From assembly GCA_002376885.1 (NCBI GenBank), contig DFOW01000001.1, positions 79,381 to 143,380 of the forward strand: 64,000 bases of DNA, in the 5' to 3' direction. This DNA is from Patescibacteria group bacterium UBA3531. Lineage in GTDB: Bacteria > Patescibacteriota > Minisyncoccia > Phycocordibacterales > UBA3531. Every line of letters starts with the position of its first letter. Position 1 is the first letter of the stretch. Under the pieces are notes generated by a model. That model was given only the letters and a program-made list of their open reading frames with translations, made no database searches and was not told the DNA's origin. Position numbers and translations under genes: made by a program. Positions 3,001-43,300 of this stretch are shown here, one piece after another.

Positions 3001-3939
3001 GTTATCAAAATCAACAGGACGACCACCACGTGGAGTCCCTACCGATAGAGACCCTATAGCGCGTCGCGTAAAACTTGTATCTGTGCCGTCGTTCTCATAC
3101 CAAGCAAAAGGACTTGACGAATTTTTTGCAACCGTTACTACATCCAAGTCGCCATCCTTATCAAAATCAAGTGGTCGTGCCCTCCATGCAGACGAAGCAT
3201 TGGAACTTGTATCGATTGATCTTCGCGTAAATGATAAGTCTGTGCCATCGTTTTGGTACCACATAAATTCTTGACCTTCATCAGCGGCAGCAACCACATC
3301 TATGTCTCCATCTTCATCGAAATCAATCGCTTCAATATAGGCAGCACCCGTTGCTGCCGCTGTTGCATCAATACTCCGTTTTGTAAAACTCGTATCGCTC
3401 CCGTCGTTTTGATACCATGCAAATTCTCCATCATTTTGTGCAGCCCCCAAAACATCAAGATCACCGTCTTCGTCAAAATCAATTACATAAATGTTACTCG
3501 GCTCACCAAGGTTGGAATCTATCTCGTGGAAGGTAAACGATGTATCTGTGCCGTCGTTCTCATACCAAGAATAAACACCAAGAGTAATACCAAGTCCATG
3601 CGCAGCCATAACCACATCTATATCTCCGTCTTCATCGAAGTCGATGGGCTGCACATCAAACATACTCGTTGTGCTTGCGGCAGTACTATCTATGAGGTGT
3701 CTGGTAAAAGATAGATTGGTTCCATTGTTTTCGTACCAGGCAAAGTTCGTTGATGCACCACTGATTACGTCCATATCTCCGTCTTCGTCGAAGTCAAAAA
3801 CTTCCACGTTTCTTGCGGCTACTGCAGCGATCTGATGACGCACATAAGGTCCAGATGCATCCACGTAGGAAACCAAGGAAAGCGATGCGAGTGCACCTAA
3901 AATACCAATTGTTAATATAGAAAGATTTTTTTTATACAT
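1..3939 (-). CDS. Giant secreted surface protein. N-terminal signal peptide, about nine FG-GAP/VCBS-like repeats, then a Thr-rich beta-helix-like region and a C-terminal putative peptidoglycan-binding domain.
   Basis: 1312-aa ORF with stop TGA at 1..3. Repeated DFDxDGDxDV and AWYENDGT motifs typical of FG-GAP/VCBS. C-terminus TSAQVTSIITLLTSFNVD...YPEGLTTGYYG...FYGYAGP resembles a PG_binding_1 fold. Signal peptide MYKKNLSILTIGILGALASLSLVSYVDA. Confidence 0.8.
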   Translation of the reverse strand: MYKKNLSILTIGILGALASLSLVSYVDASGPYVRHQIAAVAARNVEVFDFDEDGDMDVISGASTNFAWYENNGTNLSFTRHLIDSTAASTTSMFDVQPIDFDEDGDIDVVMAAHGLGITLGVYSWYENDGTDTSFTFHEIDSNLGEPSNIYVIDFDEDGDLDVLGAAQNDGEFAWYQNDGSDTSFTKRSIDATAAATGAAYIEAIDFDEDGDIDVVAAADEGQEFMWYQNDGTDLSFTRRSIDTSSNASSAWRARPLDFDKDGDLDVVTVAKNSSSPFAWYENDGTDTSFTRRAIGSLSVGTPRGGRPVDFDNDGDFDFVAGSLDDELLWFENDGSDTSFTSRMVEDGTTYMDNPENVVPTDFDDDGDIDFVVSALGSSEIAWYESKFMQGTAYSDEGSTALGSGKTVALSVSGGSTLNTDFFTTTTASDGTFSFSTTTTGITEGAAIAIYLDGETEKASAFSIVGPGGLANLDLYQNHILIKNDNTGTTTNTIVSSSDTSDSDDLLSISGGAITVGTDSDYELYIPDGYTLTQDASITVGDSDTSSDLKVVGTLDANNQNMTVYGDLLIDSSLGSLLGGSGTITVSGDWTDSGNKFTDETSTVILDGTGTITTLSPVFYNLNIGSSGQTTTLSTSVTVDRVLTFGGGTITDGTSGGNGTFILRAAIATPVVDSGTSDFSGISFEYDTTTQENIVAGVMKTLDLSALTAGGSYSLTGSTTVLGNLPLNPLSGTKTLNTAGHDLTVLGQTTIGLAGVVNAQITISGDSSVTFGALSESNGSPAGAITTTNGNTLTFTDDLTLDTAGTLIVGTSTIIFAATSTDQTIEINDSFYNLTINNTGASGSNDVIFVNNVDVDNNLTITDGDLDIDTNNVTLTVGEDITIGSGGSYTRNGEAFTIDGTTTYTDNSGAFDLGDLTVSSSTAVASLTLASNATSSGLTIASGETFSLGSNNLYLTDATASATPLTVNGTFTPGTGTVTYKATSTQTTIPVLQYYNLALDGGASFLTSAVTTVLNSFTNLGGYLNESTGYISASSTTSLNQEGYTTSDSPTITVLDGDANTSATSTDSFTITTTLSNGDTETVTLTETGSATGIFTGSPSINTGSVSGSDGALNVPSGSTILTATFTDTKESTDVTSDTATITNTGGTTNTSASSGSVAALPPSFGGGLGAPTTPTQPSQPSTGSGLTSAQVTSIITLLTSFNVDQATLDTVRNILQGNTSPTGDQTFTVSTTNLTGPFRFNTTSSQTRLLQQILAQDTTIYPEGLTTGYYGSLTRKAVGKFQERHNLAIPTDAFYGYAGPQTRATIKQVFN

Positions 3940-8545: not shown

Positions 8546-8950
8546 AGGCTATGTAAAATTATGCTAATAATATTTTATCGACCTCTTTAAAAAAGAGAGG
8601 GAAAATTCACACCTTTATTATATCAAGCGCTCATGATCTAAAAACCAAAAAATCCCCTCTTTATGGGGATTTTTGTCCAGTGTGGTGGACCACACTATCC
8701 CGTCACTCGAACCGCTCCAATTCGCCCTGGTGTCGAACTTCGTCATCCTCTTTGGGACGAGAAGATGCTCGAGATGCAACGCAAATGGATTTGGGAATTG
8801 AATCCGAGATTAGAGAAAGATGAAGTTGAAGCTGCCGTCTATGCGTGGCTTGCGTATGCGGAGTATGTGGTAAGGTTGGTGGAGAGAAAGTGAACCAAAG
8901 AGAAAGGCCCGACCGAGGTCTGACCAATCTCTTGGTTGACCTGTCGGGCC

Positions 8951-9452
8951 CTACTTGTCCAGGTCGACGAACGAGGCGTCGATGAGCGTCAGGTACTCGA
9001 GGTCCGGACTGACGTCGCCGATGACGTTGCCGAGCTCGCCCACATCATCCGGGACGCCGACCACCAGGCACTCGAGGCCCATGTAGGTCACCTTCATGCC
9101 GGACTTGAGAGTCTGGCCCTTGAGCTGCTTGAGCACCTCGCGGGGAATCCCCTCGTCATCACCCCAGGCGAACGCGCGCGGAATCCCGAACCTCTCCAGA
9201 ACGCTGCTCCAGAAGAGCTCCGCGTCCCACTCCTCGTACTCCCCATCGGGATACTCCTCGAGACTTGTGACACGGGCAGCTTCCCGAAGAACGCTCGCCG
9301 GGATGCACGGACGGGTCGTCTCGTCGTCGGTGAAGAGACTCGGGAACCCCTTCTGGAGACCCTCGAGGGGTCGCCTTGTCGTCGGTCAAGCTCACGCAGA
9401 GCCTGAGCCACGGATCGGAGACCTTGCAGATTTCCTGCCAATTCCTGTTCAT
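8951..9452 (-). pseudogene. High-GC gene of unknown function, apparently frameshifted
   Basis: The minus-strand frame reading ...EEYPDGEYEEWDAELFWSSVLERFGIPRAFAWGDDEGIPREVLKQLKGQTLKSGMKVTYMGLECLVVGVPDDVGELGNVIGDVSPDLEYLTLIDASFVDLDK* has almost exclusively G/C at third positions. The only upstream ATG (9452, MNRNWQEICKVSDPWLRL) lies in a different frame. Confidence 0.45.
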
Positions 9453-9588
9453 GGTCCTTCTCTCTCCTTCCTGAATCCGCCAGCCGAAGCTGGTGTGTTC
9501 AGGTAGAGAGAGAAATCACTACCTGGGTGGATAGTGACACAGTATTGTGTATTTGTCTAGACTACGAGATTCACCGTAGTGACGATAG

Positions 9589-9662
9589 TGGACCCGACTG
9601 GATTCGAACCAGCGACCTCCTGAGTGCAAAACAGGTGCTCTAGCCAACTGAGCTACGGGCCC
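9589..9662 (-). tRNA. tRNA-Ala (anticodon UGC)
   Basis: Minus-strand sequence GGGCCCGUAGCUCAGUUGGCUAGAGCACCUGUUUUGCACUCAGGAGGUCGCUGGUUCGAAUCCAGUCGGGUCCA. Acceptor stem carries the G3:U70 wobble that is the Ala identity element, T-loop GGUUCGAAUCC, anticodon loop UUUGCAC. CCA is not encoded. Confidence 0.85.
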
Positions 9663-11030: not shown

Positions 11031-14000
11031 TTAGTAGACTTCCTTAATCTTCGCACGCGTCATAGGCCCCGCATACCCGTAAAAGGCATCTGTTGGGATA
11101 GCTAAGTTATGTCGCTCTTGGAACTTCCCGACAGCTCGTCTGGTTAAGGTTCCATAGTAGCCAGTGGTTAAGCCTTCAGGGTAGATGGTGGTGTCTTGAG
11201 CAAGGATTTGTTGGAGAAGTCTTGTTTGACTACTGGTGGTATTGAATCTAAAGGGTCCGGTAAGGTTTGTGGTACTGACGGTAAAGGTTTGATTGCCTGT
11301 TGGTGAGGTGTTTCCTTGGAGAATGTTACGTACGGTATCTAAGGTAGTTTGATCAACGTTGAATGAGGTGAGTAGGGTGATTATGGACGTGACTTGGGCG
11401 CTTGTTAAGCCTGAACCTGTGCTTGGTTGTGAGGGCTGGGATGGAGTTTGTGGCTGAGTTGGGGTGGTTGTTTGTTTCCTTGTTCCACCGCTGAAACTTG
11501 GTGGTAGTGATGCTACTGCTCCCGTACTTGTAGTGGTGTTTGTGGTGCCTCCGGTATTGGTGATGGTGGCAGTGTCACTCGTTGTGTCAGTTGACTCTTT
11601 GGTATCAGTGAAGGTGGCCGTCAAAATGGTTGAACCACTTGGCACATTGAGGGCCCCATCACTTCCTGATACAGAGCCAGTATTAATACTTGGTGATCCG
11701 GTGAAGATACCGGTAGCGTTTCCAGTTTCAGTAAGGGTAACAGTTTCGGTGTCACCATTTGAAAGAGATGCGGTAATGGTAAAGGAGTCAGTACTTGTGG
11801 CACTGGTATTAGCATCTCCATCTAAGACGGTGATAGTTGGGCTGTCACTGGTGGTATAGCCATCTTGGTTTAAACTCGTCGTTGATGACGCACTAATGTA
11901 TCCCGTTGATTCGTTTAAGTAACCTCCTAGGTTGGTGAAGGAGTTGAGAACCGTGGTAACCGCACTCGTTAAGAAGCTTGCCCCACCATCGAGGGCTAAG
12001 TTGTAGTACTGAAGGACGGGGATGGTGGTTTGGGTACTGGTTGCCTTGTAGGTCACGGTACCGGTACCGGGAGTAAAGGTTCCGTTGACGGTGAGAGGAG
12101 TACTTGAGGCAGTGGCATCCGTTAAGAAGAGATTGTTTGATCCGAGTGAAAGGGTTTCTCCACTTGCAATGGTTAAGCCAGAGCTTGTGGCATTTGATCC
12201 AAGGGTGAGGGATGCCGCAGCAGTTGTTGAGGCAACGGTGAGATCTCCCAGGTCAAAGGCTCCACTGTTGTCCGTGAAGGTGGTGGTGCCATCGATGGTG
12301 AATGCTTCTCCGTTTCGAGTGTAAGATCCTCCACTTCCAATGGTAATGTCTTCTCCGACCGTTAGGGTGACATTGTTCGTGTCTATGTCTAAGTCACCAT
12401 CGGTGATGGTGAGATTGTTATCGACATCAACGTTATTTGAGAAGATGACGTCATTGCTTCCTGAAGCTCCGGTATTGTTGAGGGTGAGGTTGTAGAAGGA
12501 GTCATTGATTTCAATGGTTTGGTCAGTTGAGCCCGTAAAGGCGACTGTCCCCGTCCCCACAAAAAACGAGTCTGCCGTATCAAAAGTAAAATTTCCGCCA
12601 AGATTAAGAGTATTTCCATTTAGTATTCTTATAATACCCGTTGTAGGAAAAAGATGAGCCTCTGTAACATTTCCATTTATTGTTACGGTACTATCTCCAG
12701 ACAAAACAATATCTCCATCATAAAAACTAGCGGCCCCAAGTTGCGCGTTGCCTTCAATAGTAAGGTCATTCCCATTAGTATCCAAGTCTAAGGTCTTTAC
12801 AAGCCCAGATCTAATTAAAAAATTACCACCAATTGTTGTACTACCCGTTAAAGATAGTACATTACTGGCTGCACCAGAGTTATTACCGAAAAGGGTATAA
12901 TCTTCAAACAGACCTCCCAAAACATTTAAAGACGTAACAACTGTTGGGACCGCATAATAAAAGTCCGTATTAGCCATTAGGACAGTTGAGTTAGATGTAT
13001 TCATGGTTCCTGCATTCAAATAAATTTCGGTATTAGTAAAATCTTTGTGCTCTGTTATTGTCCCAGAACCTGGAAAAAAAATGTTCGTTACATAAAAACT
13101 ATTGGAATCTCCTCCTCGAAGCTGTGTTTCCTTTGTGCTGGTTGCAATTTCAAGATTATAAAATGTTAAATCTGTACCATCGGAGGGTCCGTAATCAATT
13201 CGACCATCCCCGATAAGTTTTACCGTACTTGTGTCGGGGGTAAAAATTGGAGCACCCCAACTACTAAGAGCAGCATACCTTAAAAAAGAAGAGTCTATGG
13301 TTATGGTCTCGTCATTGGCATCAAGTTCTCCAAACGTTCCAATCACTAAATCGCCCGCCCCAACAAAACCCTGTTCATCATCTACAGTTAAACTTGCGTT
13401 AAGGTCAAGAATAGTTGTAATTTGACCGCCGCAGGAACTAATAAAAGACCCGTGCGGTTTTCCTATCGTGAGTCTTCCAACGGTGACTGCTGATGTTACC
13501 GTAACGGTAGTGGTAGATGTTACCGTGTCGTCACACAGGGTCACGTCATACGTATTATCGTTTGGTATGGCACCACAGCTCCAGTTACTAGTTGAATCAG
13601 CCCAATCGGCATTTCCTCCAACCCATGAGCACTCGACTTTAGTACTGTTTGTTGTGGTTGCATTAAAGAATGGCTCTATAGGAAGGGAATAGGTACTACT
13701 GTCTGTTGGTACTGTTTCTCCCTGAGAATCATCACCATACCCCATAGACACAGCCAATATTCCAGTAGCTGCCTCTGCTAGATTAAGTTCCAGTTGGGTT
13801 GTGCCAACAGTGGCAACACTCGATACTGTTTTAGGAATACCATTGTCTGTGACATAAAAACCTCCCGACCCACTTCCCGGAAGAATGGGTCCTGTGTCAT
13901 CAGTAAATGTTAAGGTGATGGTGTCTCTTGTTCCGTTTTCCTCTGCACTAACAAAACGAGGGCCGCGCCCATCATCGGACCCACTATAGTATTCTCCTTC

Positions 14001-15050
14001 AAGTGCTGCCCATATTCTATTCGCAGCTGTTTGTAGGTCTTCGTTTGTTGAAATATGTGATCCATCTGGTGTGGCCAGATCATAAAGGGAGCCGCCAGGA
14101 ACAACATTACTATTATCATTCCATGCATCAACTTGTGCTTCCCTTATGGCATTTTTTGCCTCGTCTGTAGCAGAAGCTGAGACCATACCCACCACAACTG
14201 TTTTTACTCCAAAGTCTGAGTTTATAGCAGAAACAAGTGCATCAAGAGAAGTATTATATGCTGTTGACGCTGCCTGGAAAGCAGAGTCCGATTCTCCCTG
14301 CCAAAAAATAACGGCCTTCACTCCCCCAACACCACCAGCGGTGTTTATTCGTCTTTGCATAGAACCATACAAAGTTGTTGTAGCAGAGTTTTGTGCCCAA
14401 CCGGAAATAAAAGATCCAGATTTTGCTGCCGGAATAAAAGCAACAGGTACCCCCTGATCGGCAAGAAAGCGGGTAGCAACAAGGGGCCACACAGAACCCC
14501 CAGGAAAAGTAGAATCATCACTCACACTATCAACCTGATTAGTACTATCGTCTGTCGGATCAGTAAGTTCTTTCCAATTATCGTCGTTTCCAAAAAGAGA
14601 TGCTGCGAGAGTTGAGTGGGAATAGCTTTGGTTATTATCCCCTTTTCCTACTCCATTGCTTTGCCCCGCAATCACAAAAATATCACCAATACCAATCGTA
14701 GTAGTTGAATTACTGGTGTCGGTATCATCAGTAAACCGCACTTCAAGTGTTCCCTGCCCCGCTGTTTGATTAGTAGTTGTCCCAGTAAAAGCACCTCCAC
14801 TAGGGGAAGCGTCAATAGTTGTCCAGGACCCCCCATTAAAACGCGCTTCAATTGCTGCCGGAGAACCAGTATACGTACCTGAAATAGGGATATCTGCCTG
14901 ATCAGAACCGTCGCGTTGGAAAACCTGATACGGAACAGGTGAAGTTATTGTAACCGTTTGTGCGTAAGAGAAACTAGGTAAAAAAAACACAAAAAAAGTG
15001 ACCGGAAGGATCAGGAATAGGCACTTTTTTTCTGGAATTATTTTTTCCAT
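11031..15050 (-). CDS. Giant secreted surface protein with an N-terminal SASA/SGNH-type carbohydrate esterase domain. It then has a Cys/Trp motif region, a beta-helix-like Thr-rich region and the shared C-terminal module with a putative peptidoglycan-binding domain.
   Basis: Signal peptide. Esterase blocks IAGQSNGVGKG (Ser nucleophile), VIFWQGESDS, TPDGSHIS. Motif CSWVGGNADWADSTSNWSCGAIP. The C-terminal 620 aa are near-identical to the 1..3939 protein. Confidence 0.8.
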   Translation of the reverse strand: MEKIIPEKKCLFLILPVTFFVFFLPSFSYAQTVTITSPVPYQVFQRDGSDQADIPISGTYTGSPAAIEARFNGGSWTTIDASPSGGAFTGTTTNQTAGQGTLEVRFTDDTDTSNSTTTIGIGDIFVIAGQSNGVGKGDNNQSYSHSTLAASLFGNDDNWKELTDPTDDSTNQVDSVSDDSTFPGGSVWPLVATRFLADQGVPVAFIPAAKSGSFISGWAQNSATTTLYGSMQRRINTAGGVGGVKAVIFWQGESDSAFQAASTAYNTSLDALVSAINSDFGVKTVVVGMVSASATDEAKNAIREAQVDAWNDNSNVVPGGSLYDLATPDGSHISTNEDLQTAANRIWAALEGEYYSGSDDGRGPRFVSAEENGTRDTITLTFTDDTGPILPGSGSGGFYVTDNGIPKTVSSVATVGTTQLELNLAEAATGILAVSMGYGDDSQGETVPTDSSTYSLPIEPFFNATTTNSTKVECSWVGGNADWADSTSNWSCGAIPNDNTYDVTLCDDTVTSTTTVTVTSAVTVGRLTIGKPHGSFISSCGGQITTILDLNASLTVDDEQGFVGAGDLVIGTFGELDANDETITIDSSFLRYAALSSWGAPIFTPDTSTVKLIGDGRIDYGPSDGTDLTFYNLEIATSTKETQLRGGDSNSFYVTNIFFPGSGTITEHKDFTNTEIYLNAGTMNTSNSTVLMANTDFYYAVPTVVTSLNVLGGLFEDYTLFGNNSGAASNVLSLTGSTTIGGNFLIRSGLVKTLDLDTNGNDLTIEGNAQLGAASFYDGDIVLSGDSTVTINGNVTEAHLFPTTGIIRILNGNTLNLGGNFTFDTADSFFVGTGTVAFTGSTDQTIEINDSFYNLTLNNTGASGSNDVIFSNNVDVDNNLTITDGDLDIDTNNVTLTVGEDITIGSGGSYTRNGEAFTIDGTTTFTDNSGAFDLGDLTVASTTAAASLTLGSNATSSGLTIASGETLSLGSNNLFLTDATASSTPLTVNGTFTPGTGTVTYKATSTQTTIPVLQYYNLALDGGASFLTSAVTTVLNSFTNLGGYLNESTGYISASSTTSLNQDGYTTSDSPTITVLDGDANTSATSTDSFTITASLSNGDTETVTLTETGNATGIFTGSPSINTGSVSGSDGALNVPSGSTILTATFTDTKESTDTTSDTATITNTGGTTNTTTSTGAVASLPPSFSGGTRKQTTTPTQPQTPSQPSQPSTGSGLTSAQVTSIITLLTSFNVDQTTLDTVRNILQGNTSPTGNQTFTVSTTNLTGPFRFNTTSSQTRLLQQILAQDTTIYPEGLTTGYYGTLTRRAVGKFQERHNLAIPTDAFYGYAGPMTRAKIKEVY

Positions 15051-15152: not shown

Positions 15153-16295
15153 TTGAGACATCGAAGTCGAGTCATGTTTTTTATGGCCGTAGTGGTCATG
15201 ATGAACATCGGTGCAAACGATTGCCAGAACAACCAGGCACCGGTCCCCTCTCCGCTTCCTCAGCCTCTCATGACGATGCTTGCAGGAAACGATATGGAGG
15301 TTCGTGGGAACGACTGCCCTGTCACCTCGACATTTGTTGAGGCAAGCTGGAACGGAGGCCCTTGGATCTACGTCGGCTCATGCACCCTCGGTGAGTACGA
15401 AGGATTTCTGCCTCCCCAGGGGGCTGGCCATGGAATCCTCGCCATCCGAGACAACACAGGGCAGATCCTCCGAACGACACTTTCTGTCGGATGGGGTCTA
15501 CCGATCGAGATCACCGGCCAGTCGAATGCCACTGGCCTCATGGAAACCTTGATCAATGCGATCTCTTCGCTTGCTTCGGTATTCATGGTCGGCCACCAGA
15601 ACGAGGCCGAATCCATCAAGCACGCCGACGATCGCTTCACCGACCACGGCAATGGCTCTGCGTGGCCCCTCCTTGCAGATGAAATCATTGGACAGACAGG
15701 GCTTCCTGTCATGTTCATTTCTTCACCGGTGGGGGCAACATCAGTCAGCCAGTGGGTTCCTGGTGGGAATCTTCGCGAAAGGGCGAAGGATCTGAGAATG
15801 ACCGCAACGAATGATTGTTCGGCTGCAGACATCTTCTACCAGGGAGAGAACGAACCTGTATTCGCCTCTAATCCCACGATCGATCCCGAAACGGGTCTGA
15901 CTTTTGGCGAGCTGTGGCTCGCCTCAATCGGGGGAGATTTGAAGCAGTACTACAAGGGAGAGCTCTTCAAGATCGCAGACGATCACATGAATGCGGGGTG
16001 TGGAGGAACTCCGCTTGTCATCGTCCAGATTGGAGACAATACTGCCAACCAGAATCCAGGTATCCAGGGCTTCATCCAAGAGGTTCGGGACGCCCAGTAC
16101 GAGGCAGCAATCGAGCACCCCAACATCCACCTGGGAGCCTGTACTGCCGGTCTTCCGGTCCCTGACGGTCTCCACCTGGGCGATGATGCTCGAGAGGAAT
16201 TCGTTTCGCGACTCATGAAAGGCTTGGCGCCAGTGCTCTGGGGTGGGCCGGTTCCAACCGACGAAGAGCTTGGATGCACGCCTCCGCAAGTCTAG
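15153..16295 (+). CDS. SASA/SGNH-type carbohydrate esterase encoded in a high-GC island (homologous to the N-terminal domain of the adjacent giant protein)
   Basis: Blocks ITGQSNATG, SAWPLLADEIIGQTGLPVMFISSPVGATSVSQW, IFYQGENEP, VPDGLHLGDD. Strong G/C third-position bias. The start may instead be the Met at 15174. GC-rich terminator follows the stop. Confidence 0.7.
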   Translation: MRHRSRVMFFMAVVVMMNIGANDCQNNQAPVPSPLPQPLMTMLAGNDMEVRGNDCPVTSTFVEASWNGGPWIYVGSCTLGEYEGFLPPQGAGHGILAIRDNTGQILRTTLSVGWGLPIEITGQSNATGLMETLINAISSLASVFMVGHQNEAESIKHADDRFTDHGNGSAWPLLADEIIGQTGLPVMFISSPVGATSVSQWVPGGNLRERAKDLRMTATNDCSAADIFYQGENEPVFASNPTIDPETGLTFGELWLASIGGDLKQYYKGELFKIADDHMNAGCGGTPLVIVQIGDNTANQNPGIQGFIQEVRDAQYEAAIEHPNIHLGACTAGLPVPDGLHLGDDAREEFVSRLMKGLAPVLWGGPVPTDEELGCTPPQV

Positions 16296-20496: not shown

Positions 20497-20557
20497 AGAC
20501 CTATGATACTATACGCGAAGACTTGAGCTCACAACCCCTTACAAGAAGGAAGAAATC

Positions 20558-20953
20558 ATGAGCGAACCCGATGGAAAAGTTCAATTGCCACCCTCTCCAC
20601 CTCTCGACTTGCACCTGCTCATTAGCAGTGTGCTCATGCAGGAAGCGGAAGAACTCCTGGAGGAGCTCGGCATCGTAGAGAAGCTCGAACCCTTCATTGC
20701 GAGCGCCCTCGAGTCGATCGAACGATCTCGACAGGCAGAGATCGCAAATACCAGGGAGAAGCTCGGGCCGTTCTTCAAGATCGACACGGAAGTTCCGGAG
20801 CCGGTGCGGGGAGTTTCTCCTCCTCCTGCACACCTGCTCGAGAAGATGGGGGGACTTCGGAAGCCCGCCCTCGAGCGACTCGGCGAGCTTCTCGGTCGTG
20901 CACTCAAGCACAGGATCGATGCACGCTACCGAACGATCGGAAGCACTGCCTAG
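20558..20953 (+). CDS. Hypothetical protein in a high-GC patch between uvrC and uvrA
   Basis: 131-aa ORF with G/C-biased third positions, acidic helical sequence, followed by a GC-rich terminator. Confidence 0.45.
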   Translation: MSEPDGKVQLPPSPPLDLHLLISSVLMQEAEELLEELGIVEKLEPFIASALESIERSRQAEIANTREKLGPFFKIDTEVPEPVRGVSPPPAHLLEKMGGLRKPALERLGELLGRALKHRIDARYRTIGSTA

Positions 20954-20960
20954 AAGGGCT

Positions 20961-20995
20961 CACGGCCGGAGGAAACTCCGGCCGTGCTCTATTTA
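20961..20995. terminator. Intrinsic terminator cacggccggag-gaaa-ctccggccgtg plus T-rich tail (bidirectional; uvrA converges on it)
   Basis: Perfect 11-bp stem and GAAA tetraloop read directly. Confidence 0.65.
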
Positions 20996-25093: not shown

Positions 25094-28352
<3,259 letters not shown>

Positions 28353-28368
28353 CTAGCACATGAAATGA

Positions 28369-28398
28369 TTGACAAATCATACATGTATATGATACATT
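28369..28398 (+). promoter_or_regulatory. Sigma70-like promoter TTGACA-N18-TGaTACATT reading into the candidate ncRNA
   Basis: ttgaca at 28369..28374; extended -10 tgatacatt ending at 28398. Confidence 0.5.
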
Positions 28399-28404
28399 GG
28401 TGGT

Positions 28405-28653
28405 GCGAGTTCGGCAGAGACCACATTCCGCGAGGGATGCCGCCGTCTCTGTGGAGGAACAACATCGGGAATACCATCGCTTGATGGCTGAACCGTTGCC
28501 CCACCTACGACGTTGGTTCTAGACCCGGACCGCAGGAGCATAGCGTCCCAAACCTGAAATACGGTTTCGGATTGAAACAAGGCCTTGCGCCAGAGCTAGT
28601 GCTTCGGGCCCCCAATCTGACTGCGGTCGGTGCGGGGGCCTTCTTCTTTTTTT
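28405..28653 (+). ncRNA. Candidate structured ncRNA of unknown class (about 250 nt, GC-rich relative to the genome), ending in an intrinsic terminator
   Basis: Bounded by the promoter above and the hairpin gggccccc...gggggcc (28606..28640) plus ttcttcttttttt. Internal stems ggtgg...ccacc, cagagac...gtctctg, aaacc-tgaaatac-ggttt, gtttc-ggatt-gaaac. Lies in divergent/convergent intergenic space, so it is not a leader for a plus-strand gene. Confidence 0.4.
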
Positions 28654-28683
28654 ACGTAAGGATTTACGTAAATCCTTACGTAA
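28652..28683. repeat. Perfect 32-nt palindrome ttacgtaaggatttacgtaaatccttacgtaa containing three TTACGTAA cores
   Basis: Reverse complement equals itself; begins inside the terminator T-run of the candidate ncRNA. Confidence 0.9.
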
Positions 28684-28693
28684 ACACATTCCC

Positions 28694-28874
28694 CCAAGAA
28701 ACCATATTTGGAAGCGTCCCTAAATAAAACCCTCTTGGAATAATATTTGAAGTACTATCAAACCTGCTTCCCAGCATAACTTTTGAAAGGGTCCTCGATT
28801 TTTTTAAAATACTCCCAAGGAACCACATTTGGGAGCGTCCCTAAATAAAACCCTCCTGGAATAATGTTTGAAGT
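28694..28874. repeat. Two 60-nt direct repeats (28694..28753 and 28815..28874, about 90 percent identical). Each has an internal stem (ccaaga/tcttgg; ctcccaa/ttgggag) and the conserved core agcgtccctaaataaaaccctc.
   Basis: Aligned by eye: ccaagaaaccatatttggaagcgtccctaaataaaaccctcttggaataatatttgaagt versus ccaaggaaccacatttgggagcgtccctaaataaaaccctcctggaataatgtttgaagt. Confidence 0.85.
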
Positions 28875-28979
28875 GTTGCCGCAGGCGAAGTGTGCTTGGT
28901 CTGCCTTAAGCAGACACAAGCCGAGGATAAGGAAATGTTGTCGCTGGAACAACATTTCCGGCGCTTCAAATATTATTCC
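28858..28979. repeat. Long hairpin of about 120 nt (ggaataatgtttgaag ... cttcaaatattattcc) enclosing nested perfect hairpins ggaaatgttgt-cgctgga-acaacatttcc and gtctgc-cttaa-gcagac
   Basis: Arms at 28858..28873 and 28964..28979; inner IR at 28931..28959. Overlaps the second direct repeat and abuts the GH15 stop. Confidence 0.8.
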
Positions 28980-28987
28980 AAAAAAAC

Positions 28988-30943
28988 CTATTTCTCTAGC
29001 TCCGCCAGTTTCTCCAAGTAATCCAAGATCGTGTGAATATACTCTGCGTGGCTCCAGGTTAGTGGGGCAACAGATAATTGTTCCCCAGTATACGGATCAA
29101 ATTGTTCTGCCAAGATTCCAGAACGAGGCGCGCGCTTAAAAATCCAGTCTAATTTTTTTTCAACTTCTTTTAGATCTTTGACTGTTTTTGCTTTAGCAAT
29201 TTCGTATTGATACATCCACAACGTAGTAATAATCCACGGATTTGGAATCTCTGCACGTCTATGGTATTGATCTCCTTCATATCTAATTGCACCACCAATA
29301 TCACCCTCATGGATCACACAACAAGGACCCTCCTGAAGCTGTGCAAACCCTTCTTGGTTTTTTGGATCATCTACCGGCAATACCCCAAACCGAAACGGAC
29401 CATAAAAACTACTGATGTCGTGTGTTCTGTCATAGGTAGGTTCTTTTGTTCGGTAGTCAATAAGTTTATAGAAAAATTTCTCATCTTTATTATAAAGATG
29501 TTTTTTAATAGCTGACTTTACAGCACTTGCTCCGTCTTTATATTTTTTGGCATCGAGCTTTTTACCAAGTGTCTCTGCAAAATTTGATGCAGCCATAAGC
29601 CCCGCATACACTACTGATGAAGAGTATGCTGTTGTTCCAAATTTCTCTTCCCATAAGTCATAGCTTCCGTATGGTAAGCCTGTCTTTTCGTCTCGATAAA
29701 AGTAGAGGAAATCTGCAGCTTTTTTAATGAACGAATTATAAATCTTTTCTATAAACTCAAGATCTTTTCTTCTTTTATAGTGCTCCCATAGGGCATATAA
29801 AATAATTGCTGTTTCATCTTCTTGGATTGCTAACTGTTTTTTGCCTTCATATACCCATGGATGCCAACTACTTCCAAGCGATCCATCGGGGCTAAATTTA
29901 TGATTCAAATATCCTTCCTCACTTATTACTTGATTACAAAATTCATAGAAACGTTTGGTGGTATCAAAATACCCAAGACGATCAAAAGCAGTTGCTGTTA
30001 CCCCTGCATCTCGCGGCCACATATATGCATATGTATCGTGCCCATGATGAGAAATATCAGAGTCCCCTGATGCAATGATAGACCCTCGCTTATCAACATG
30101 CGTTTGCATAATAAGGAGTGATTTTTTAAAAAGCGAAACAAGCTTTGCATCAAGCCCATTAAAATCAAGATCAACTTTATTAACCCACGCATGCCAATAG
30201 TCTCGTGTTGTTTGAATAAGATGCTCGGGAGTTTTTATATGGATATAGTTATGTATCCCCTTTACCTCATGAATTGTATTGGATGACACAACCCAATAAT
30301 GGATTACTGATTCTCCGTCACCTTTTATTTCTGTTTCAAATGATATTGTTGAATCAACAGAACCATGTTGGATAGGATTATTTGAAAGGTTTCCATCTTC
30401 AGCATCCTTCCATGTTCCTTCTTTTCCTTGAGTTTGATAAAGGCCAATACCATATTCTTTAAATGGCTTTCCATCCATTTTCCCCGAAACCAAAAAATTT
30501 GTTTTATTACGGTAATGAATAATAGCAGTCAAATCTGGATCGTAATATGCAGTATGACCGCCGTCGTCTTCTCCTTGAAATTGCTGGTTGAAAAATATTT
30601 TAAATGAACGCGTACGTGGCATGGTATTTTTTACCGACACCTTCCGCAAAAAAATATTTTGCTCGTTATAGATTGCGTCACTAAAATTAAGCTCAATACC
30701 AAGAGCCTTGTGTCGTGCTCGAATAGAAGAAACCATGGTTTCTTTTTCGTAATCAATAACGGTCTCCCACCCTGGACCAGAAAGCCAACTCATGTTGCCA
30801 TCTACCCATACACCAATTTTGTGTTGTCGGCCTCCTGTATGGTTTTCTTGCCCAACATACGGATAGAAAAAATCACATACTTGCGCACAATTATCGTATG
30901 CAATTAACATTTCTCCATTACCCAATACTAAAGAGCGAGGCAT
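28988..30943 (-). CDS. Glycoside hydrolase family 15 (glucoamylase/glucodextranase-like)
   Basis: 651 aa. N-terminal SLVLGNGEMLIAYDNCAQVCDFFYPYVG beta-sandwich followed by an (alpha/alpha)6 catalytic region (WPRDAG...). Architecture typical of bacterial/archaeal GH15. Confidence 0.8.
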   Translation of the reverse strand: MPRSLVLGNGEMLIAYDNCAQVCDFFYPYVGQENHTGGRQHKIGVWVDGNMSWLSGPGWETVIDYEKETMVSSIRARHKALGIELNFSDAIYNEQNIFLRKVSVKNTMPRTRSFKIFFNQQFQGEDDGGHTAYYDPDLTAIIHYRNKTNFLVSGKMDGKPFKEYGIGLYQTQGKEGTWKDAEDGNLSNNPIQHGSVDSTISFETEIKGDGESVIHYWVVSSNTIHEVKGIHNYIHIKTPEHLIQTTRDYWHAWVNKVDLDFNGLDAKLVSLFKKSLLIMQTHVDKRGSIIASGDSDISHHGHDTYAYMWPRDAGVTATAFDRLGYFDTTKRFYEFCNQVISEEGYLNHKFSPDGSLGSSWHPWVYEGKKQLAIQEDETAIILYALWEHYKRRKDLEFIEKIYNSFIKKAADFLYFYRDEKTGLPYGSYDLWEEKFGTTAYSSSVVYAGLMAASNFAETLGKKLDAKKYKDGASAVKSAIKKHLYNKDEKFFYKLIDYRTKEPTYDRTHDISSFYGPFRFGVLPVDDPKNQEGFAQLQEGPCCVIHEGDIGGAIRYEGDQYHRRAEIPNPWIITTLWMYQYEIAKAKTVKDLKEVEKKLDWIFKRAPRSGILAEQFDPYTGEQLSVAPLTWSHAEYIHTILDYLEKLAELEK

Positions 30944-35407: not shown

Positions 35408-35435
35408 TTTGACAAACTTTTTGGTACGTCTAGTA
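35408..35435 (+). promoter_or_regulatory. Sigma70-like promoter TTGACA-N16-TAGTAT upstream of the IclR-like gene
   Basis: Read directly; low-GC promoter immediately followed by a high-GC coding patch. Confidence 0.45.
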
Positions 35436-35490
35436 TGGAAATCAGAATTGGGGGGATGGGCCGTGTGCCCAAAAGGAGCTCGGAAAGCAA

Positions 35491-35964
35491 ATGCCGAAAG
35501 CAGCCGAAGAGTACATGATCGAGACGCTCGCCCGAGGGATGAGGGTCTTCGCCCTCATCGCAACGAGTCCCTCGAACAGCATCGGGGTGACCGAGATCGC
35601 GACGACGTTGGATCTTCAAAAGAACAACGTCTTCCGGATCCTGAAGACGCTCGAGGTGGAAGGCTTGGTCTCCCACAACGGCGAGACCGATGCCGACAAG
35701 TGCCGCTACGGGCTGGGGCCCAAGGCCATCGAGCTCGGCGAGTGGCTCCTCATCCACGCCGACAAGACCGTGGTCGAGGTGGTCGAGTTCTTCAAGGGAG
35801 CCGATGGGCCGGGGAGCGTGAAGCTCACGGCAACAGCTCGCGTCGAGAACCGTGACGACGTCGAGGAGGACCTCCGGATGGAGGCGAGCGAGCTCGCCGG
35901 ACGTCTGGCGGTCACGCCCGACGAGGGGCTCGAAGTCGTTCCCGCAACCGGGACCGACGGCTAG
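35491..35964 (+). CDS. Truncated IclR-family transcriptional regulator (N-terminal HTH only), in a high-GC patch
   Basis: VFALIATSPSNSIGVTEIATTLDLQKNNVFRILKTLEVEGLVS matches the IclR HTH_IclR domain. GC-rich codons. Followed by a GC-rich hairpin plus ttctttct. Confidence 0.6.
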   Translation: MPKAAEEYMIETLARGMRVFALIATSPSNSIGVTEIATTLDLQKNNVFRILKTLEVEGLVSHNGETDADKCRYGLGPKAIELGEWLLIHADKTVVEVVEFFKGADGPGSVKLTATARVENRDDVEEDLRMEASELAGRLAVTPDEGLEVVPATGTDG

Positions 35965-36015
35965 AGCTACGAAAGAGGGAGGCCACTGGGAGACCGGTGG
36001 CCTTCTTTCTATTAC

Positions 36016-38403: not shown

Positions 38404-39690
38404 TTAAAACACCTGACTCCTATAAACATGGTTAAACTCTGGGAACTCTTTTGGTTCAACATTAAGTACCTTTACTGTTCCCGTCTCTTTATCAATTTCA
38501 ATAGTTGCAAAGCTTTTATTATTGTTACGTGTTATCTCGTTCAGAATATTTTCTGGATTTACATTGAATGACAAAGTATACACCCCTGACGCAAGGTCGG
38601 TTATATCAAGATTTTGATCAACATAGGTAAAGAAGTACGTATCTCCCCACCCAACCGACACCCCTTGTCGCTCCTTACCACAAATTAAATATCGTGCCTC
38701 GCTATCTTTAAATGCTTCGTCATTTATTTGTGTTACGTCTCTAATACAAAAAGTAGTTTTTTGTTCTTGCTTGCCACTAAACACATGGGGATGACTATCA
38801 TCGTGTACATGGTCATGTTGATTACGTGCACTAATATTCTCTTCTTGAGTTTGAGAAAGAACATAGGTAACAAAATCACTGTAATGATAATGCAGATGCT
38901 CTTCGTGCCATAAAAAGATCCCTACGGGGGTATCTCTGTATGAGTCATCAGTTTTATAAATTCTTTGAAGTACCACTCTATCAATATCTTCTTTTATTCC
39001 AGCTGTGCCTGGATCAGCAACAAGTTCAAGAGGGCCTTCTCCTACATTGTAGTAGGTAGTACTAAACAATAAAAAGTCTCGCCCCCCTTCTTGTTTAAGC
39101 GTTATATCTTGTGGCGGAAGAGGAATAAGGTCTGGCAATAATTCAACCTCTCCACGCACGAAAGCTTCTATAATAGTTCGCTCTTTCTTTGAAATAACCC
39201 TATCAAAAAATTTATTTTTATTAGAGTATCGTTCGTCTATCCGCGATACAATTTTTTCTGCAACAAAGGCTGGTGTGTCGTCCGATGAAAATTCATACAA
39301 ACCAGGAACAAAAAAGTCCCCTAAAATCTCAATTGGTGGAATAATAAATTGTGTTCCGTGTATCAAAAAGGCCTCGCGCTCAAGCTCCCCCCACTCAAGC
39401 TCTTGTGTTAAATATTCAAGAATATCTTGGTTATAAGCATCCCAGGTAATGCCACGAATTGCCTCTTGGAAGAGCTTTTCGTCATCCATCCCCCATCCGA
39501 ATTCTTCACCAATGGCATACGATAATGCCTTATGGTTGTATCCATCTTTTAAATCAACAAAGAGTGCTTGTGGTTCGCCACTTTCTACACGATTTAAAAA
39601 TACAAAAGGAGAAAAATAAAAATATCCTGAAACAAGGATACTGATAAACATTACAATCGTGAGGGACTTCCAAGGCATTACTTTTTCCAA
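38404..39690 (-). CDS. Hypothetical secreted/membrane-anchored protein (428 aa)
   Basis: N-terminal TM helix, His-rich patch (HEEHLHYHYSD...HDHVHDDSHPH); no family recognised. Confidence 0.5.
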   Translation of the reverse strand: MEKVMPWKSLTIVMFISILVSGYFYFSPFVFLNRVESGEPQALFVDLKDGYNHKALSYAIGEEFGWGMDDEKLFQEAIRGITWDAYNQDILEYLTQELEWGELEREAFLIHGTQFIIPPIEILGDFFVPGLYEFSSDDTPAFVAEKIVSRIDERYSNKNKFFDRVISKKERTIIEAFVRGEVELLPDLIPLPPQDITLKQEGGRDFLLFSTTYYNVGEGPLELVADPGTAGIKEDIDRVVLQRIYKTDDSYRDTPVGIFLWHEEHLHYHYSDFVTYVLSQTQEENISARNQHDHVHDDSHPHVFSGKQEQKTTFCIRDVTQINDEAFKDSEARYLICGKERQGVSVGWGDTYFFTYVDQNLDITDLASGVYTLSFNVNPENILNEITRNNNKSFATIEIDKETGTVKVLNVEPKEFPEFNHVYRSQVF

Positions 39691-39847: not shown

Positions 39848-39887
39848 GCTACGTAACATGTTACGTAGCAAGCTACGTAACAAAACG
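39848..39887. promoter_or_regulatory. Perfect 22-nt palindrome gctacgtaacatgttacgtagc followed by a third half-site copy (agctacgtaac); candidate operator upstream of the XRE gene
   Basis: Read directly. Shares the TACGTAA core with the 28652 palindrome. Followed by hairpin aaggccacc...ggtggcctt (39890..39930). Confidence 0.5.
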
Positions 39888-40004: not shown

Positions 40005-40226
40005 ATGAAGAAGTCAATCCACACAAAAGAATACGCTTACTTCGTCGAGAAATTGCGAAAAGCGCGCCTTGAAGCAGGATTGACGCAGGTTCAGGTTGCT
40101 AAGAAGCTAAAACGTCCGCAGTCGTATATCTCCAATGTGGAATCAGGACAACAGCGTGTCGATGTTGTCGAATTGCAAAAATTTGCAAAAATGTACGGCA
40201 AGGACGTAAATTACTTTTTTAAATAA
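40005..40226 (+). CDS. XRE-family helix-turn-helix transcriptional regulator
   Basis: LRKARLEAGLTQVQVAKKLKRPQSYISNVESGQQ is a canonical Cro/C1-type HTH. Confidence 0.8.
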   Translation: MKKSIHTKEYAYFVEKLRKARLEAGLTQVQVAKKLKRPQSYISNVESGQQRVDVVELQKFAKMYGKDVNYFFK

Positions 40227-42435: not shown

Positions 42436-42490
42436 GAATAAGGGAGCCAATCCCCGTCGTTTACAATTTTTCCTAAAACGACGGGGATTG

Positions 42491-43300
42491 CTGTTCGCGC
42501 ACTGGGCGGGCGGGGCAAGCACAATGCATCACCACCAACTTTAACGAAGCCACAGAGCGAACACGAAGCAAGCACCGAGCAGGCATCGCGAACGAATGTG
42601 AGTGGCCAATGCGAGGTGTTTGCGAAGTGTGAGCGTGTATAAGAACTACCACCAAACGCGGAGACGGGAGCGCCTCGGGCCGACGCGAAGCTAGAAAAAG
42701 CGGAGTATGGGAAATATAATGACCTTACGGAGCTTTTGGAAGCTGAAGCGACGGACGCAAACCAAAAATTTCCTTGCGATATCTTTTCGCCTAGCGGCGG
42801 AGGGGTCTGGGGAGGAGCCGCACAAAAATGAAAGGAAATTTTTTGTGTTTGCTCGCGCGAGGTACGAGCGCGCCCGGGGCGCAGAATCAACACACAAGCG
42901 GAGCGTACGAGTTAGGTTCGCATCACCACGCGCTCCGCGCGTGCGAAGTGGGTTCGCGCAATGTGTAATAATTCTTCACAAAACGAGACATAATCCAAAT
43001 CGTGAAAATTTTTTACTTTTGCCACAGGCAAAAGTGGGTACGCAAAATCGGTTTTCGTGTTGTAGGCAAAGACGAATTCAGAGAGAACGGAGCACCGGAG
43101 CGAATGCGGAGGCGCAGGGGCGTGAGCAGAATCACCACGCCTGCCTGCCGCAGGCAGGGACTCCAATGCGTACGCGGAAGGTTGGAGCCACCACGCGCGC
43201 GGCGCGTGATTAGTTGGTCTTTGACTCGAAATAAGTTCGAGCAAAGGCTACAATATCTTCGCAACTTTTTGAGCCTTATTTCTCAACGTCTTTTTTATCC
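42491..43300. other. GC-rich noncoding tract of about 800 bp with degenerate internal repeats and many perfect short palindromes; possible large structured RNA or decayed foreign DNA
   Basis: No frame has a convincing ORF. Repeats include GCGAA(CGAA)TGTGAGYG three times, gcagaatcaMcac twice, caccacgcgc..gcgcgtg twice. Palindromes include cctgcctgc-c-gcaggcagg, ctcgcgcgag, aaaaatttcct...aggaaattttt. Confidence 0.5.

Follow-up and report, generated by a model that had tools for sequence, protein, structure and literature searches.

A candidate stand-alone small-RNA gene on inserted DNA between tgt and a GH15-family gene in a marine Patescibacteria genome

Introduction

Small RNA (sRNA) genes that stand alone, such as OxyS beside oxyR or GcvB beside gcvA in E. 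coli, present a common outer organisation, namely a promoter and a terminator of their own, an intergenic location, the absence of an open reading frame (ORF) and a divergent orientation to a neighbour with which the promoter regions overlap. To our knowledge, regulatory RNAs are barely known in the Patescibacteria, or candidate phyla radiation (CPR), where genomes are tiny and the classical sRNA chaperones mostly absent. The present report concerns a 64,000-nucleotide (nt) segment, hereafter the window, of the marine, Paceibacteria-like member UBA3531 of this group (contig DFOW01000001.1) and, within it, a G+C-rich element on the plus strand of the spacer that separates tgt from a gene of the GH15 family (Table 1). 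There, a promoter and an intrinsic terminator bracket an intergenic segment devoid of ORF, i.e., the organisation of a stand-alone sRNA gene at the level of the sequence, and the element is read here, with about even confidence, as an orphan, independently transcribed small-RNA gene located on acquired DNA. Its differences from described sRNAs are nonetheless several: no homology in sequence or structure can be found, and it exceeds most of them in length (~245 nt) and in G+C content (58%). Unlike OxyS- or GcvB-type sRNAs, it is not conserved in syntenic relatives, it neighbours an enzyme gene, i.e., tgt, rather than a regulator, and its transcript is predicted.

Other described systems come close in one respect or another. 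6S RNA (RF00013), which likewise stands alone, resembles the element in its G+C-richness, its length of ~200 nt and the strength of its promoter and terminator, but the element has no Rfam match to it at E <= 10, its predicted fold consists of a junction and a second domain instead of a rod with a central bubble, and it belongs to a lineage-specific insertion. With the counter-transcribed RNAs (ctRNAs) ctRNA_p42d (RF00489) and ctRNA_pGA1 (RF00236), it has a terminator hairpin and a U-tract in common and nothing else; the scores lie far under the gathering thresholds, no rep gene occurs nearby and the likeness is that of any terminator. Immediately behind the element, finally, an array of TTACGTAA boxes resembles the autoregulated operators of AbrB/MazE-type regulators (SpoVT_AbrB, PF04014), that is, TACGTA-core boxes with 12-nt phasing as found at the promoters of genes of 52-61 codons. 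In contrast to those operators, no recognisable promoter overlaps this array and no ORF follows it, and the binding of a regulator to it is predicted.

Table 1. Positions of the features discussed, in window coordinates (aa, amino acids; MFE, minimum free energy; HTH, helix-turn-helix; GC3, G+C at third codon positions).
Feature	Positions	Strand	Remarks
-35 hexamer TTGACA of RNA promoter	28369-28374	+	
Extended -10 TGaTACATT of RNA promoter	28390-28398	+	TG 28390-28391, TACATT 28393-28398
tgt promoter TTGTCA-17-TATTTT	-35 at 28375->28370	-	
5' domain, four-way junction	28405-28533	+	MFE and centroid agree; single-sequence prediction
Second domain, irregular hairpin	28535-28605	+	GGAGCAUAGC pairs with GCUAGUGCUUC; single-sequence prediction
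Intrinsic terminator	28606-28653	+	8-bp G+C stem GGGCCCCC/GGGGGCCU with inner hairpin (28606-28641), then T-tract
Perfect 34-nt palindrome	28651-28684		Three TTACGTAA boxes at 28652, 28664 and 28676; 12-nt phasing; inverted spacers GGAT/ATCC
Repeat-rich remainder of insertion	28688-28981		G+C-rich hairpins at 28875-28963
GH15-tgt spacer	28329-28987		659 nt
tgt	27114-28328	-	Pfam-confirmed
GH15-family gene	28988-30943	-	Pfam-confirmed
AbrB/MazE-type gene, 52 aa	39678-39836	-	38-52% identical to metagenome array-linked homologues; 11 kb from RNA
Array of AbrB/MazE-type gene	39849-39880		TTACGTAG-CTTG-CTACGTAA-CATG-TTACGTAG; contains promoter TTGCTA-17-CATAAT (39871->39843), minus strand
G+C-rich HTH gene, IclR/MarR-type	35491-35964 (island 35410-36012)	+	GC3 0.86; own TTGACA-17-TAGTAT promoter, hairpin terminator
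G+C-rich 131-aa ORF	20558-20953 (island 20500-20995)	+	No Pfam match; -10 TGATACTAT at 20503, hairpin terminator

A promoter and a terminator paired on the plus strand

The element had originally been predicted from the letters of the DNA and a list of ORFs, and the position given to it, between the start of tgt and the end of GH15, both on the minus strand, rests on gene calls that Pfam now backs. The 3' end of GH15 is convergent to the RNA unit and lies 335 nt downstream of it, with no plus-strand gene following the unit. Regarding transcription initiation, the TTGACA hexamer, the 18-nt spacer and the extended -10 are all present as predicted and make up a promoter that matches the consensus at 10 of 12 positions, the extended -10 coming on top. 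When both strands of the window were scanned, 19 sites reached at least 10/12 matches, and of these the RNA promoter alone has the TG in addition. On the opposite strand, its TTGACA overlaps the -35 of the tgt promoter, TTGTCA, the two promoters being divergent and back to back. The tgt promoter has a counterpart, TTGGTA-17-ATTTTT, in the corresponding spacer of the syntenic relative L084 (see below) and, because the -35 of the RNA promoter overlaps this native tgt -35, the RNA promoter is a hybrid of native and inserted DNA. Of note, the spacer of the RNA promoter (28376-28393) is itself an imperfect palindrome with 6-nt arms, ATCATA-CATGTA-TATGAT, which could be an operator or else a Xer/dif-like core at the insertion junction.

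As for the other end, the terminator is the most stable of the 16 sites in the window where a hairpin is followed by a T-run, with -29.5 kcal/mol; this ranking comes from a relaxed scan, since a simple terminator scan misses the site on account of a loop longer than 8 nt. The predicted GC hairpin is consequently the strongest in the window, and the 13-nt T-run announced with it proves approximate, the tract TTCTTCTTTTTTT at 28641-28653 (in the RNA, UUCUUCUUUUUUU) having 11 T in 13 positions, seven of them consecutive. Since the minus-strand hairpin is preceded by an A-run and has no T after it, the terminator would act in one direction only. In sum, the window has its best promoter and its best terminator ~250 nt apart, on the same strand and in the correct orientation, which supports a discrete plus-strand transcription unit of ~245 nt and makes a chance pairing of these signals unlikely. 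The DNA itself is well established: five independent contigs of the species, from three samples, are 99.99-100% identical to the window over the stretches they share and, as independent assemblies thus agree, the element is real and not an assembly artefact.

Coding capacity and base composition

Inside the predicted transcript, no ORF combines a start codon with a ribosome-binding site. The only peptides starting with ATG count 15 and 12 aa, are non-hydrophobic and lack a Shine-Dalgarno (SD) site, so that the small hydrophobic ORF with start codon and SD expected of a type I toxin-antitoxin module is absent from the transcript. Longer ORFs at the unit are either antisense or begin ahead of the transcription start, and none of the eight small ORFs of the region has a Pfam match. 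The antisense ORFs of 67 and 53 aa have no words in common with any of 5.8 billion proteins and, in a phmmer search with the 67-aa ORF against 1.84 billion representatives, nothing but two tandem-repeat artefacts was retrieved. Moreover, the G+C content hardly varies among codon positions in any frame of the RNA unit (0.54-0.66), as against a GC3 of 0.86 in the neighbouring G+C-rich HTH gene. With no credible ORF, the RNA unit is non-coding.

With regard to composition, the G+C content at 28400-28640 amounts to 0.575-0.595 versus 0.415 in the window. The original prediction rightly described the segment as G+C-rich, but the step from there to a stable RNA is undercut: several other G+C-rich islands of the window are protein-coding cassettes, so that G+C-richness alone does not imply an RNA. 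These islands reach 0.69 G+C and appear to have been acquired horizontally, on repeated occasions, from a G+C-rich donor; the 131-aa ORF, for instance, lies on the plus strand between native genes of the minus strand. The RNA unit exhibits the same outer architecture as the G+C-rich coding cassettes, but without an ORF.

Known RNA families and homologues

At the gathering thresholds of Rfam 15, the only match in the whole window is a tRNA-Ala at 9589-9662, and the RNA unit matches no family. When 801 nt and 261 nt of the region were searched at E <= 10, matches at chance level only were obtained on both strands, with no riboswitch aptamer and no preQ1 among them. The best look-alikes are the ctRNA terminators mentioned above, with 16.7 and 15.7 bits (E 0.5-0.9) against gathering thresholds of 50 and 45. 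ARAGORN detects no transfer-messenger RNA (tmRNA) in the window. The cmscan check against Rfam that had been proposed with the original prediction thus assigns no known family, and the judgement by eye that the element is not RNase P, tmRNA, signal recognition particle (SRP) RNA or 6S RNA stands, with no Rfam family near threshold and ARAGORN negative. Superficial likenesses to the RNase P P4 helix, SRP helix 8, a T-box motif, the group II 5' GUGCG and CsrB-like GGA motifs were considered and rejected, the corresponding Rfam models remaining silent.

A highly divergent housekeeping RNA, i.e., 6S, SRP, RNase P or tmRNA, could in principle have been missed by the Rfam models, and the size, G+C-richness and strong promoter and terminator of the element are typical of abundant stable RNAs. 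It is, however, extremely unlikely: ARAGORN is negative, none of these families matches at E <= 10, the predicted fold has several domains instead of forming a 6S-like rod, and the element was inserted recently and is lacking in relatives, which must possess these essential RNAs too. As to 6S RNA more precisely, both the MFE structure and the centroid consist of the junction (RNA positions 1-129) and a separate domain (131-201), and the 5' and 3' ends are not paired.

Riboswitches deserve separate consideration, as riboswitches controlling antisense transcripts exist, e.g., the B12-controlled AspocR in Listeria. By analogy, the element would be an orphan riboswitch or attenuator whose read-through runs antisense into the GH15, GH57 and glycosyltransferase (GT) glycogen genes, the AbrB-type array acting as a second gate. 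The geometry is suggestive, with an aptamer-sized region, a terminator and then the convergent 3' end of an operon 335 nt on, as is the operator-like array placed directly after the T-tract. Such a switch remains quite unlikely all the same, insofar as no Rfam aptamer is recognised at E <= 10, the terminator is extremely stable, no conservation delineates a ligand pocket and the closest relatives run the same genes without the element. For a cis-acting leader in the usual sense, no aptamer match is available and the gene downstream, GH15, is convergent.

Homologues were sought in 211 loci, comprising 80 tgt loci from GTDB, the contigs that encode the nearest tgt proteins and 120 loci with box arrays (see below), as well as in phage and plasmid, viral and metagenome collections. 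Against the 211 loci, nhmmer finds no homologue of the RNA element; a covariance model of the four-way-junction domain retrieves only itself from 634 kb of loci; and tblastx of the region against the window and the same loci yields nothing. The blastn search of INPHARED phages and PLSDB plasmids gave no hit. In IMG/VR, neither the antisense-ORF translations nor DNA patterns of the RNA motif and of the repeat core found a match, and all that the three-box pattern retrieved was a 12-mer tandem repeat, unrelated to the array, in a contig the size of a microvirus. The antisense-ORF translations, used as a proxy for DNA, likewise found nothing in the JGI metagenome collection, which itself lacks the source contig. 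There is no second copy of the element in 6 kb of the genome beyond the window, and a literature search brought up nothing relevant. While a structured RNA class is established from homologues with covarying pairs, no homologue of this element was thus found in the locus, phage, plasmid, viral or metagenome collections searched.

Predicted fold

Taking ~28405 as the start of the RNA, as the position of the -10 suggests, single-sequence folding predicts two domains ahead of the terminator. The four-way junction would be closed by the helix GCG.AGUUCGG/CCGGACCGC and would bear three arms, namely (i) a hairpin with a GCGA tetraloop of the GNRA type, (ii) a long irregular hairpin capped CCAUC-GCUU-GAUGG, and (iii) a short hairpin. 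On the plus strand, the MFE z-score is -2.0 when the terminator is included and -1.67 when only the body is folded, 9 of 200 shuffled sequences reaching the same stability; on the minus strand, the two values are -1.0 and -0.73, respectively. The asymmetry between strands agrees with the orientation of promoter and terminator. The thermodynamics nevertheless suggest only weakly that the RNA is structured: the segment had been described as full of nested stems, which amounts to little more than what its composition gives, and of the structured non-coding RNA originally proposed, the discrete non-coding plus-strand unit is supported, whereas single-sequence thermodynamics are weak for a conserved structure.

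The minus strand was also envisaged as the functional one, the segment then being part of a long intercistronic leader between GH15 and tgt, e.g., a queuosine-related regulator of tgt. The segment does lie directly upstream of tgt on the coding strand of that gene, and in the relatives GH15 adjoins tgt, the two probably sharing a transcript. Such a leader is very unlikely: the minus-strand fold is no more stable than those of shuffled sequences, neither strand matches preQ1 or any other riboswitch, a conserved promoter of tgt itself persists downstream of the G+C-rich part, and the promoter and terminator signals of the unit are specific to the plus strand.

An insertion in the GH15-tgt spacer

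The history of the spacer was examined in 12 Patescibacteria loci from a tgt genome scan and in the loci of the four closest tgt proteins. Two of these relatives, L084 and L085, keep the gene order GT-GH57-GH15-tgt-UvrB. In the former, the tgt product is 78% identical to that of the window and the GH15-tgt spacer measures 64 nt; in the latter, these values are 69% and 11 nt, respectively, and the two relatives are 70% identical to each other in tgt. Approximately 580 nt of the spacer in the window (roughly 28381-28959) are absent from both. From the tgt identities, the tree is ((window, L084), L085), so that a single gain in the lineage of the window is the most parsimonious scenario. The sequences at the two edges of the insert (28338-28380 and 28948-28982) both align to one and the same part of the L084 spacer, tentatively as they are A+T-rich, which suggests that the insert is flanked by a diverged target duplication of ~25 bp.

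Beyond the RNA unit and the palindrome that follows it, the remainder of the insertion is rich in repeats. A 66-nt direct repeat (28688-28753 and 28809-28874, 89% identical) is accompanied by an 18-nt arm (28964-28981) in inverted orientation to 28735-28752 and 28857-28873, and the fold z-score of the remainder reaches -7.8 (plus strand) and -6.5 (minus strand). The 18-nt arm resembles the native 3' untranslated region (UTR) of GH15 in L084, which suggests that a local inverted duplication accompanied the insertion. No other copy of this remainder occurs in the window or in any locus searched. With respect to miniature inverted-repeat transposable elements (MITEs) and insertion sequences (ISs), the insert has internal inverted and direct repeats and possibly the ~25-bp diverged flank duplication, but neither an outer pair of terminal inverted repeats (TIRs) nor a second copy in ~74 kb of the genome or in the locus and viral collections searched. 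The 66-nt repeats were also considered as part of a diversity-generating retroelement (DGR), which was rejected given that their differences are not adenine-specific, and as clustered regularly interspaced short palindromic repeats (CRISPR) or a tandem interspersed guide RNA (TIGR) array, both rejected on repeat length and number.

The TTACGTAA array and an AbrB/MazE-type gene

The perfect palindrome behind the RNA unit starts within the last three T of the terminator tract. Its three TACGTA-core boxes and their 12-nt phasing correspond to the arrays that overlap promoters of AbrB/MazE-type genes. Scanning of metagenomes for three TTACGTAA boxes with spacers of 2-6 nt, where 24 bases are specified and the chance expectation is therefore near zero, revealed such arrays in at least 120 contigs (loci L092-L211). 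Most of the arrays listed are 12-nt phased, many follow the pattern box/spacer/box/inverted spacer/box and they often form perfect palindromes of 32-34 nt. In at least seven metagenome contigs among the matches listed, an AbrB/MazE-type gene (PF04014) of 56-61 aa starts 8-23 nt from the array. Arrays are also often situated directly after an intrinsic terminator (e.g., L093, L103, L107, L136 and L169), and the only known non-coding RNAs beside them, in 20 metagenome loci, are occasional tRNAs.

The genome of the window encodes such a regulator of its own, a 52-aa AbrB/MazE-type protein whose gene follows the second array; these two arrays are the only ones in ~74 kb of the genome, and in both cases a G+C hairpin and a T-rich tract come immediately before the array. 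As the -10 CATAAT ends 6 nt before the ATG, the gene appears to be leaderless. Its stop codon overlaps (TAATG) the start of a 428-aa gene (38404-39690, minus strand), and an XRE-type HTH gene (40005-40226, plus strand) is divergent from it. From these sequence features, we infer that the palindrome after the RNA would be an operator for the 52-aa regulator, where it could serve as a roadblock behind the terminator or else be the vestige of a regulated unit. More broadly, AbrB-type arrays look like the signature of an autoregulated mini-regulator with a dispersed regulon.

Another observation bears on these palindromes. Two independent Logan assemblies (L002 and L003) both break inside the 34-nt palindrome, with position 1 corresponding to window position 28680, as is expected from de Bruijn graphs with k=31; such palindromes will systematically fragment short-read assemblies at operator-like arrays of TTACGTAA boxes.

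Proposed mechanism, counterarguments and meaning

Under the sRNA-gene reading, RNA polymerase with a sigma-70-type factor would start at ~28405 from the near-consensus promoter set back to back with the tgt -35, and a G+C-rich RNA of ~245 nt would be made, folding as the four-way-junction domain and the second hairpin domain. The strong, one-directional terminator would then end the RNA and thereby block antisense transcription into the convergent GH15, GH57 and GT genes. The product would most likely be a free RNA acting in trans, through base-pairing or protein binding, an mRNA or a leader being improbable. The 52-aa AbrB/MazE-type protein would probably bind the three-box palindrome, which would either reinforce termination as a roadblock or be part of a downstream unit that is now gene-less. 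A more ambitious version would see in the element the first member of a new class of structured RNAs carried by horizontally acquired G+C-rich cassettes, its terminator coupled to the AbrB-type array, so that a tiny regulator of the looped-hinge-helix (AbrB) fold would gate read-through into the glycogen operon or insulate it; this appears decidedly improbable.

Several observations weigh against an sRNA gene. As no homologue turned up in any collection searched, there is neither covariation nor evidence of purifying selection and, in a clonal population, single-nucleotide polymorphisms (SNPs) are uninformative on constraint. No complementarity to a target longer than 12 nt is found within the window. 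The stability of the fold is marginally above that of shuffles, little beyond composition for an RNA of 58% G+C. The other plus-strand cassettes of the genome in which a promoter, a G+C-rich body and a terminator succeed one another code for protein. Finally, the unit exhibits a weak local 3-nt periodicity (mean range 0.277 versus 0.184 +/- 0.039 for shuffled sequences), the phase of which switches midway.

It is this weak periodicity that keeps a decayed gene under consideration, i.e., a horizontally acquired G+C-rich protein cassette, like those at 20558-20953 and 35491-35964, that would have lost its ORF through deletions or frameshifts, promoter and terminator surviving around a functionless transcript. 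The codon-like signal with its phase switch, the lack of conservation of the RNA in every collection searched and the existence of several plus-strand cassettes with a similar -10 (TGATACTAT) and similar terminator ends (GGCCTTCTTTCT) around a G+C-rich ORF all speak for such a decay. It is nonetheless unlikely on three grounds: (i) the periodicity, 0.28, falls far short of the 0.35-0.49 of intact cassettes, and the order of its phases is that of the minus strand, whereas promoter and terminator are on the plus strand; (ii) no translated similarity exists in Pfam, in the protein sets of 5.8 and 1.84 billion, or by tblastx against the window and the 211 loci; and (iii) the -35 lies in native DNA, which means that the promoter was not simply imported with a cassette.

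Should the sRNA-gene reading be right, the element would offer a concrete candidate for validation in metatranscriptomes, namely a well-delimited, strongly promoted RNA gene on recently acquired DNA. Its weight is limited in that an unconserved orphan from a single genome is not enough, alone, to define a class or to settle an open question, and the association of TTACGTAA arrays with mini-AbrB genes is arguably a more general lead than the RNA.

Source genome and other features of the window

The tgt protein is found identical on Tara Oceans contigs (JGI, Logan), and its closest relatives in GTDB are from Patescibacteria, with at most 64% identity. Among the G+C-rich stretches of the window, one adjoins tRNA-Ala(TGC) at 9588-9662; the list of islands further includes 8936-9452 and 15153-16295, one of which holds a SASA-esterase-like gene. 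At 42480-43215, a G+C-rich stretch of ~750 nt has no convincing ORF and no Pfam or Rfam match, and displays units ~245-265 nt apart in which CACCAC is followed by G+C palindromes (CACGCGCTCCGCGCGTG / CACGCGCGCGGCGCGTG), with recurring GCGAAG motifs; it may be another non-coding element. Lastly, ~1.47 kb at 26-1473 and at 11053-12521 are 86% identical and correspond to the ends of two giant genes, at 1-3939 (FG-GAP/PG_binding) and 11031-15050 (SASA/PG_binding), i.e., a C-terminal module common to two predicted surface proteins of ~1,300 aa.

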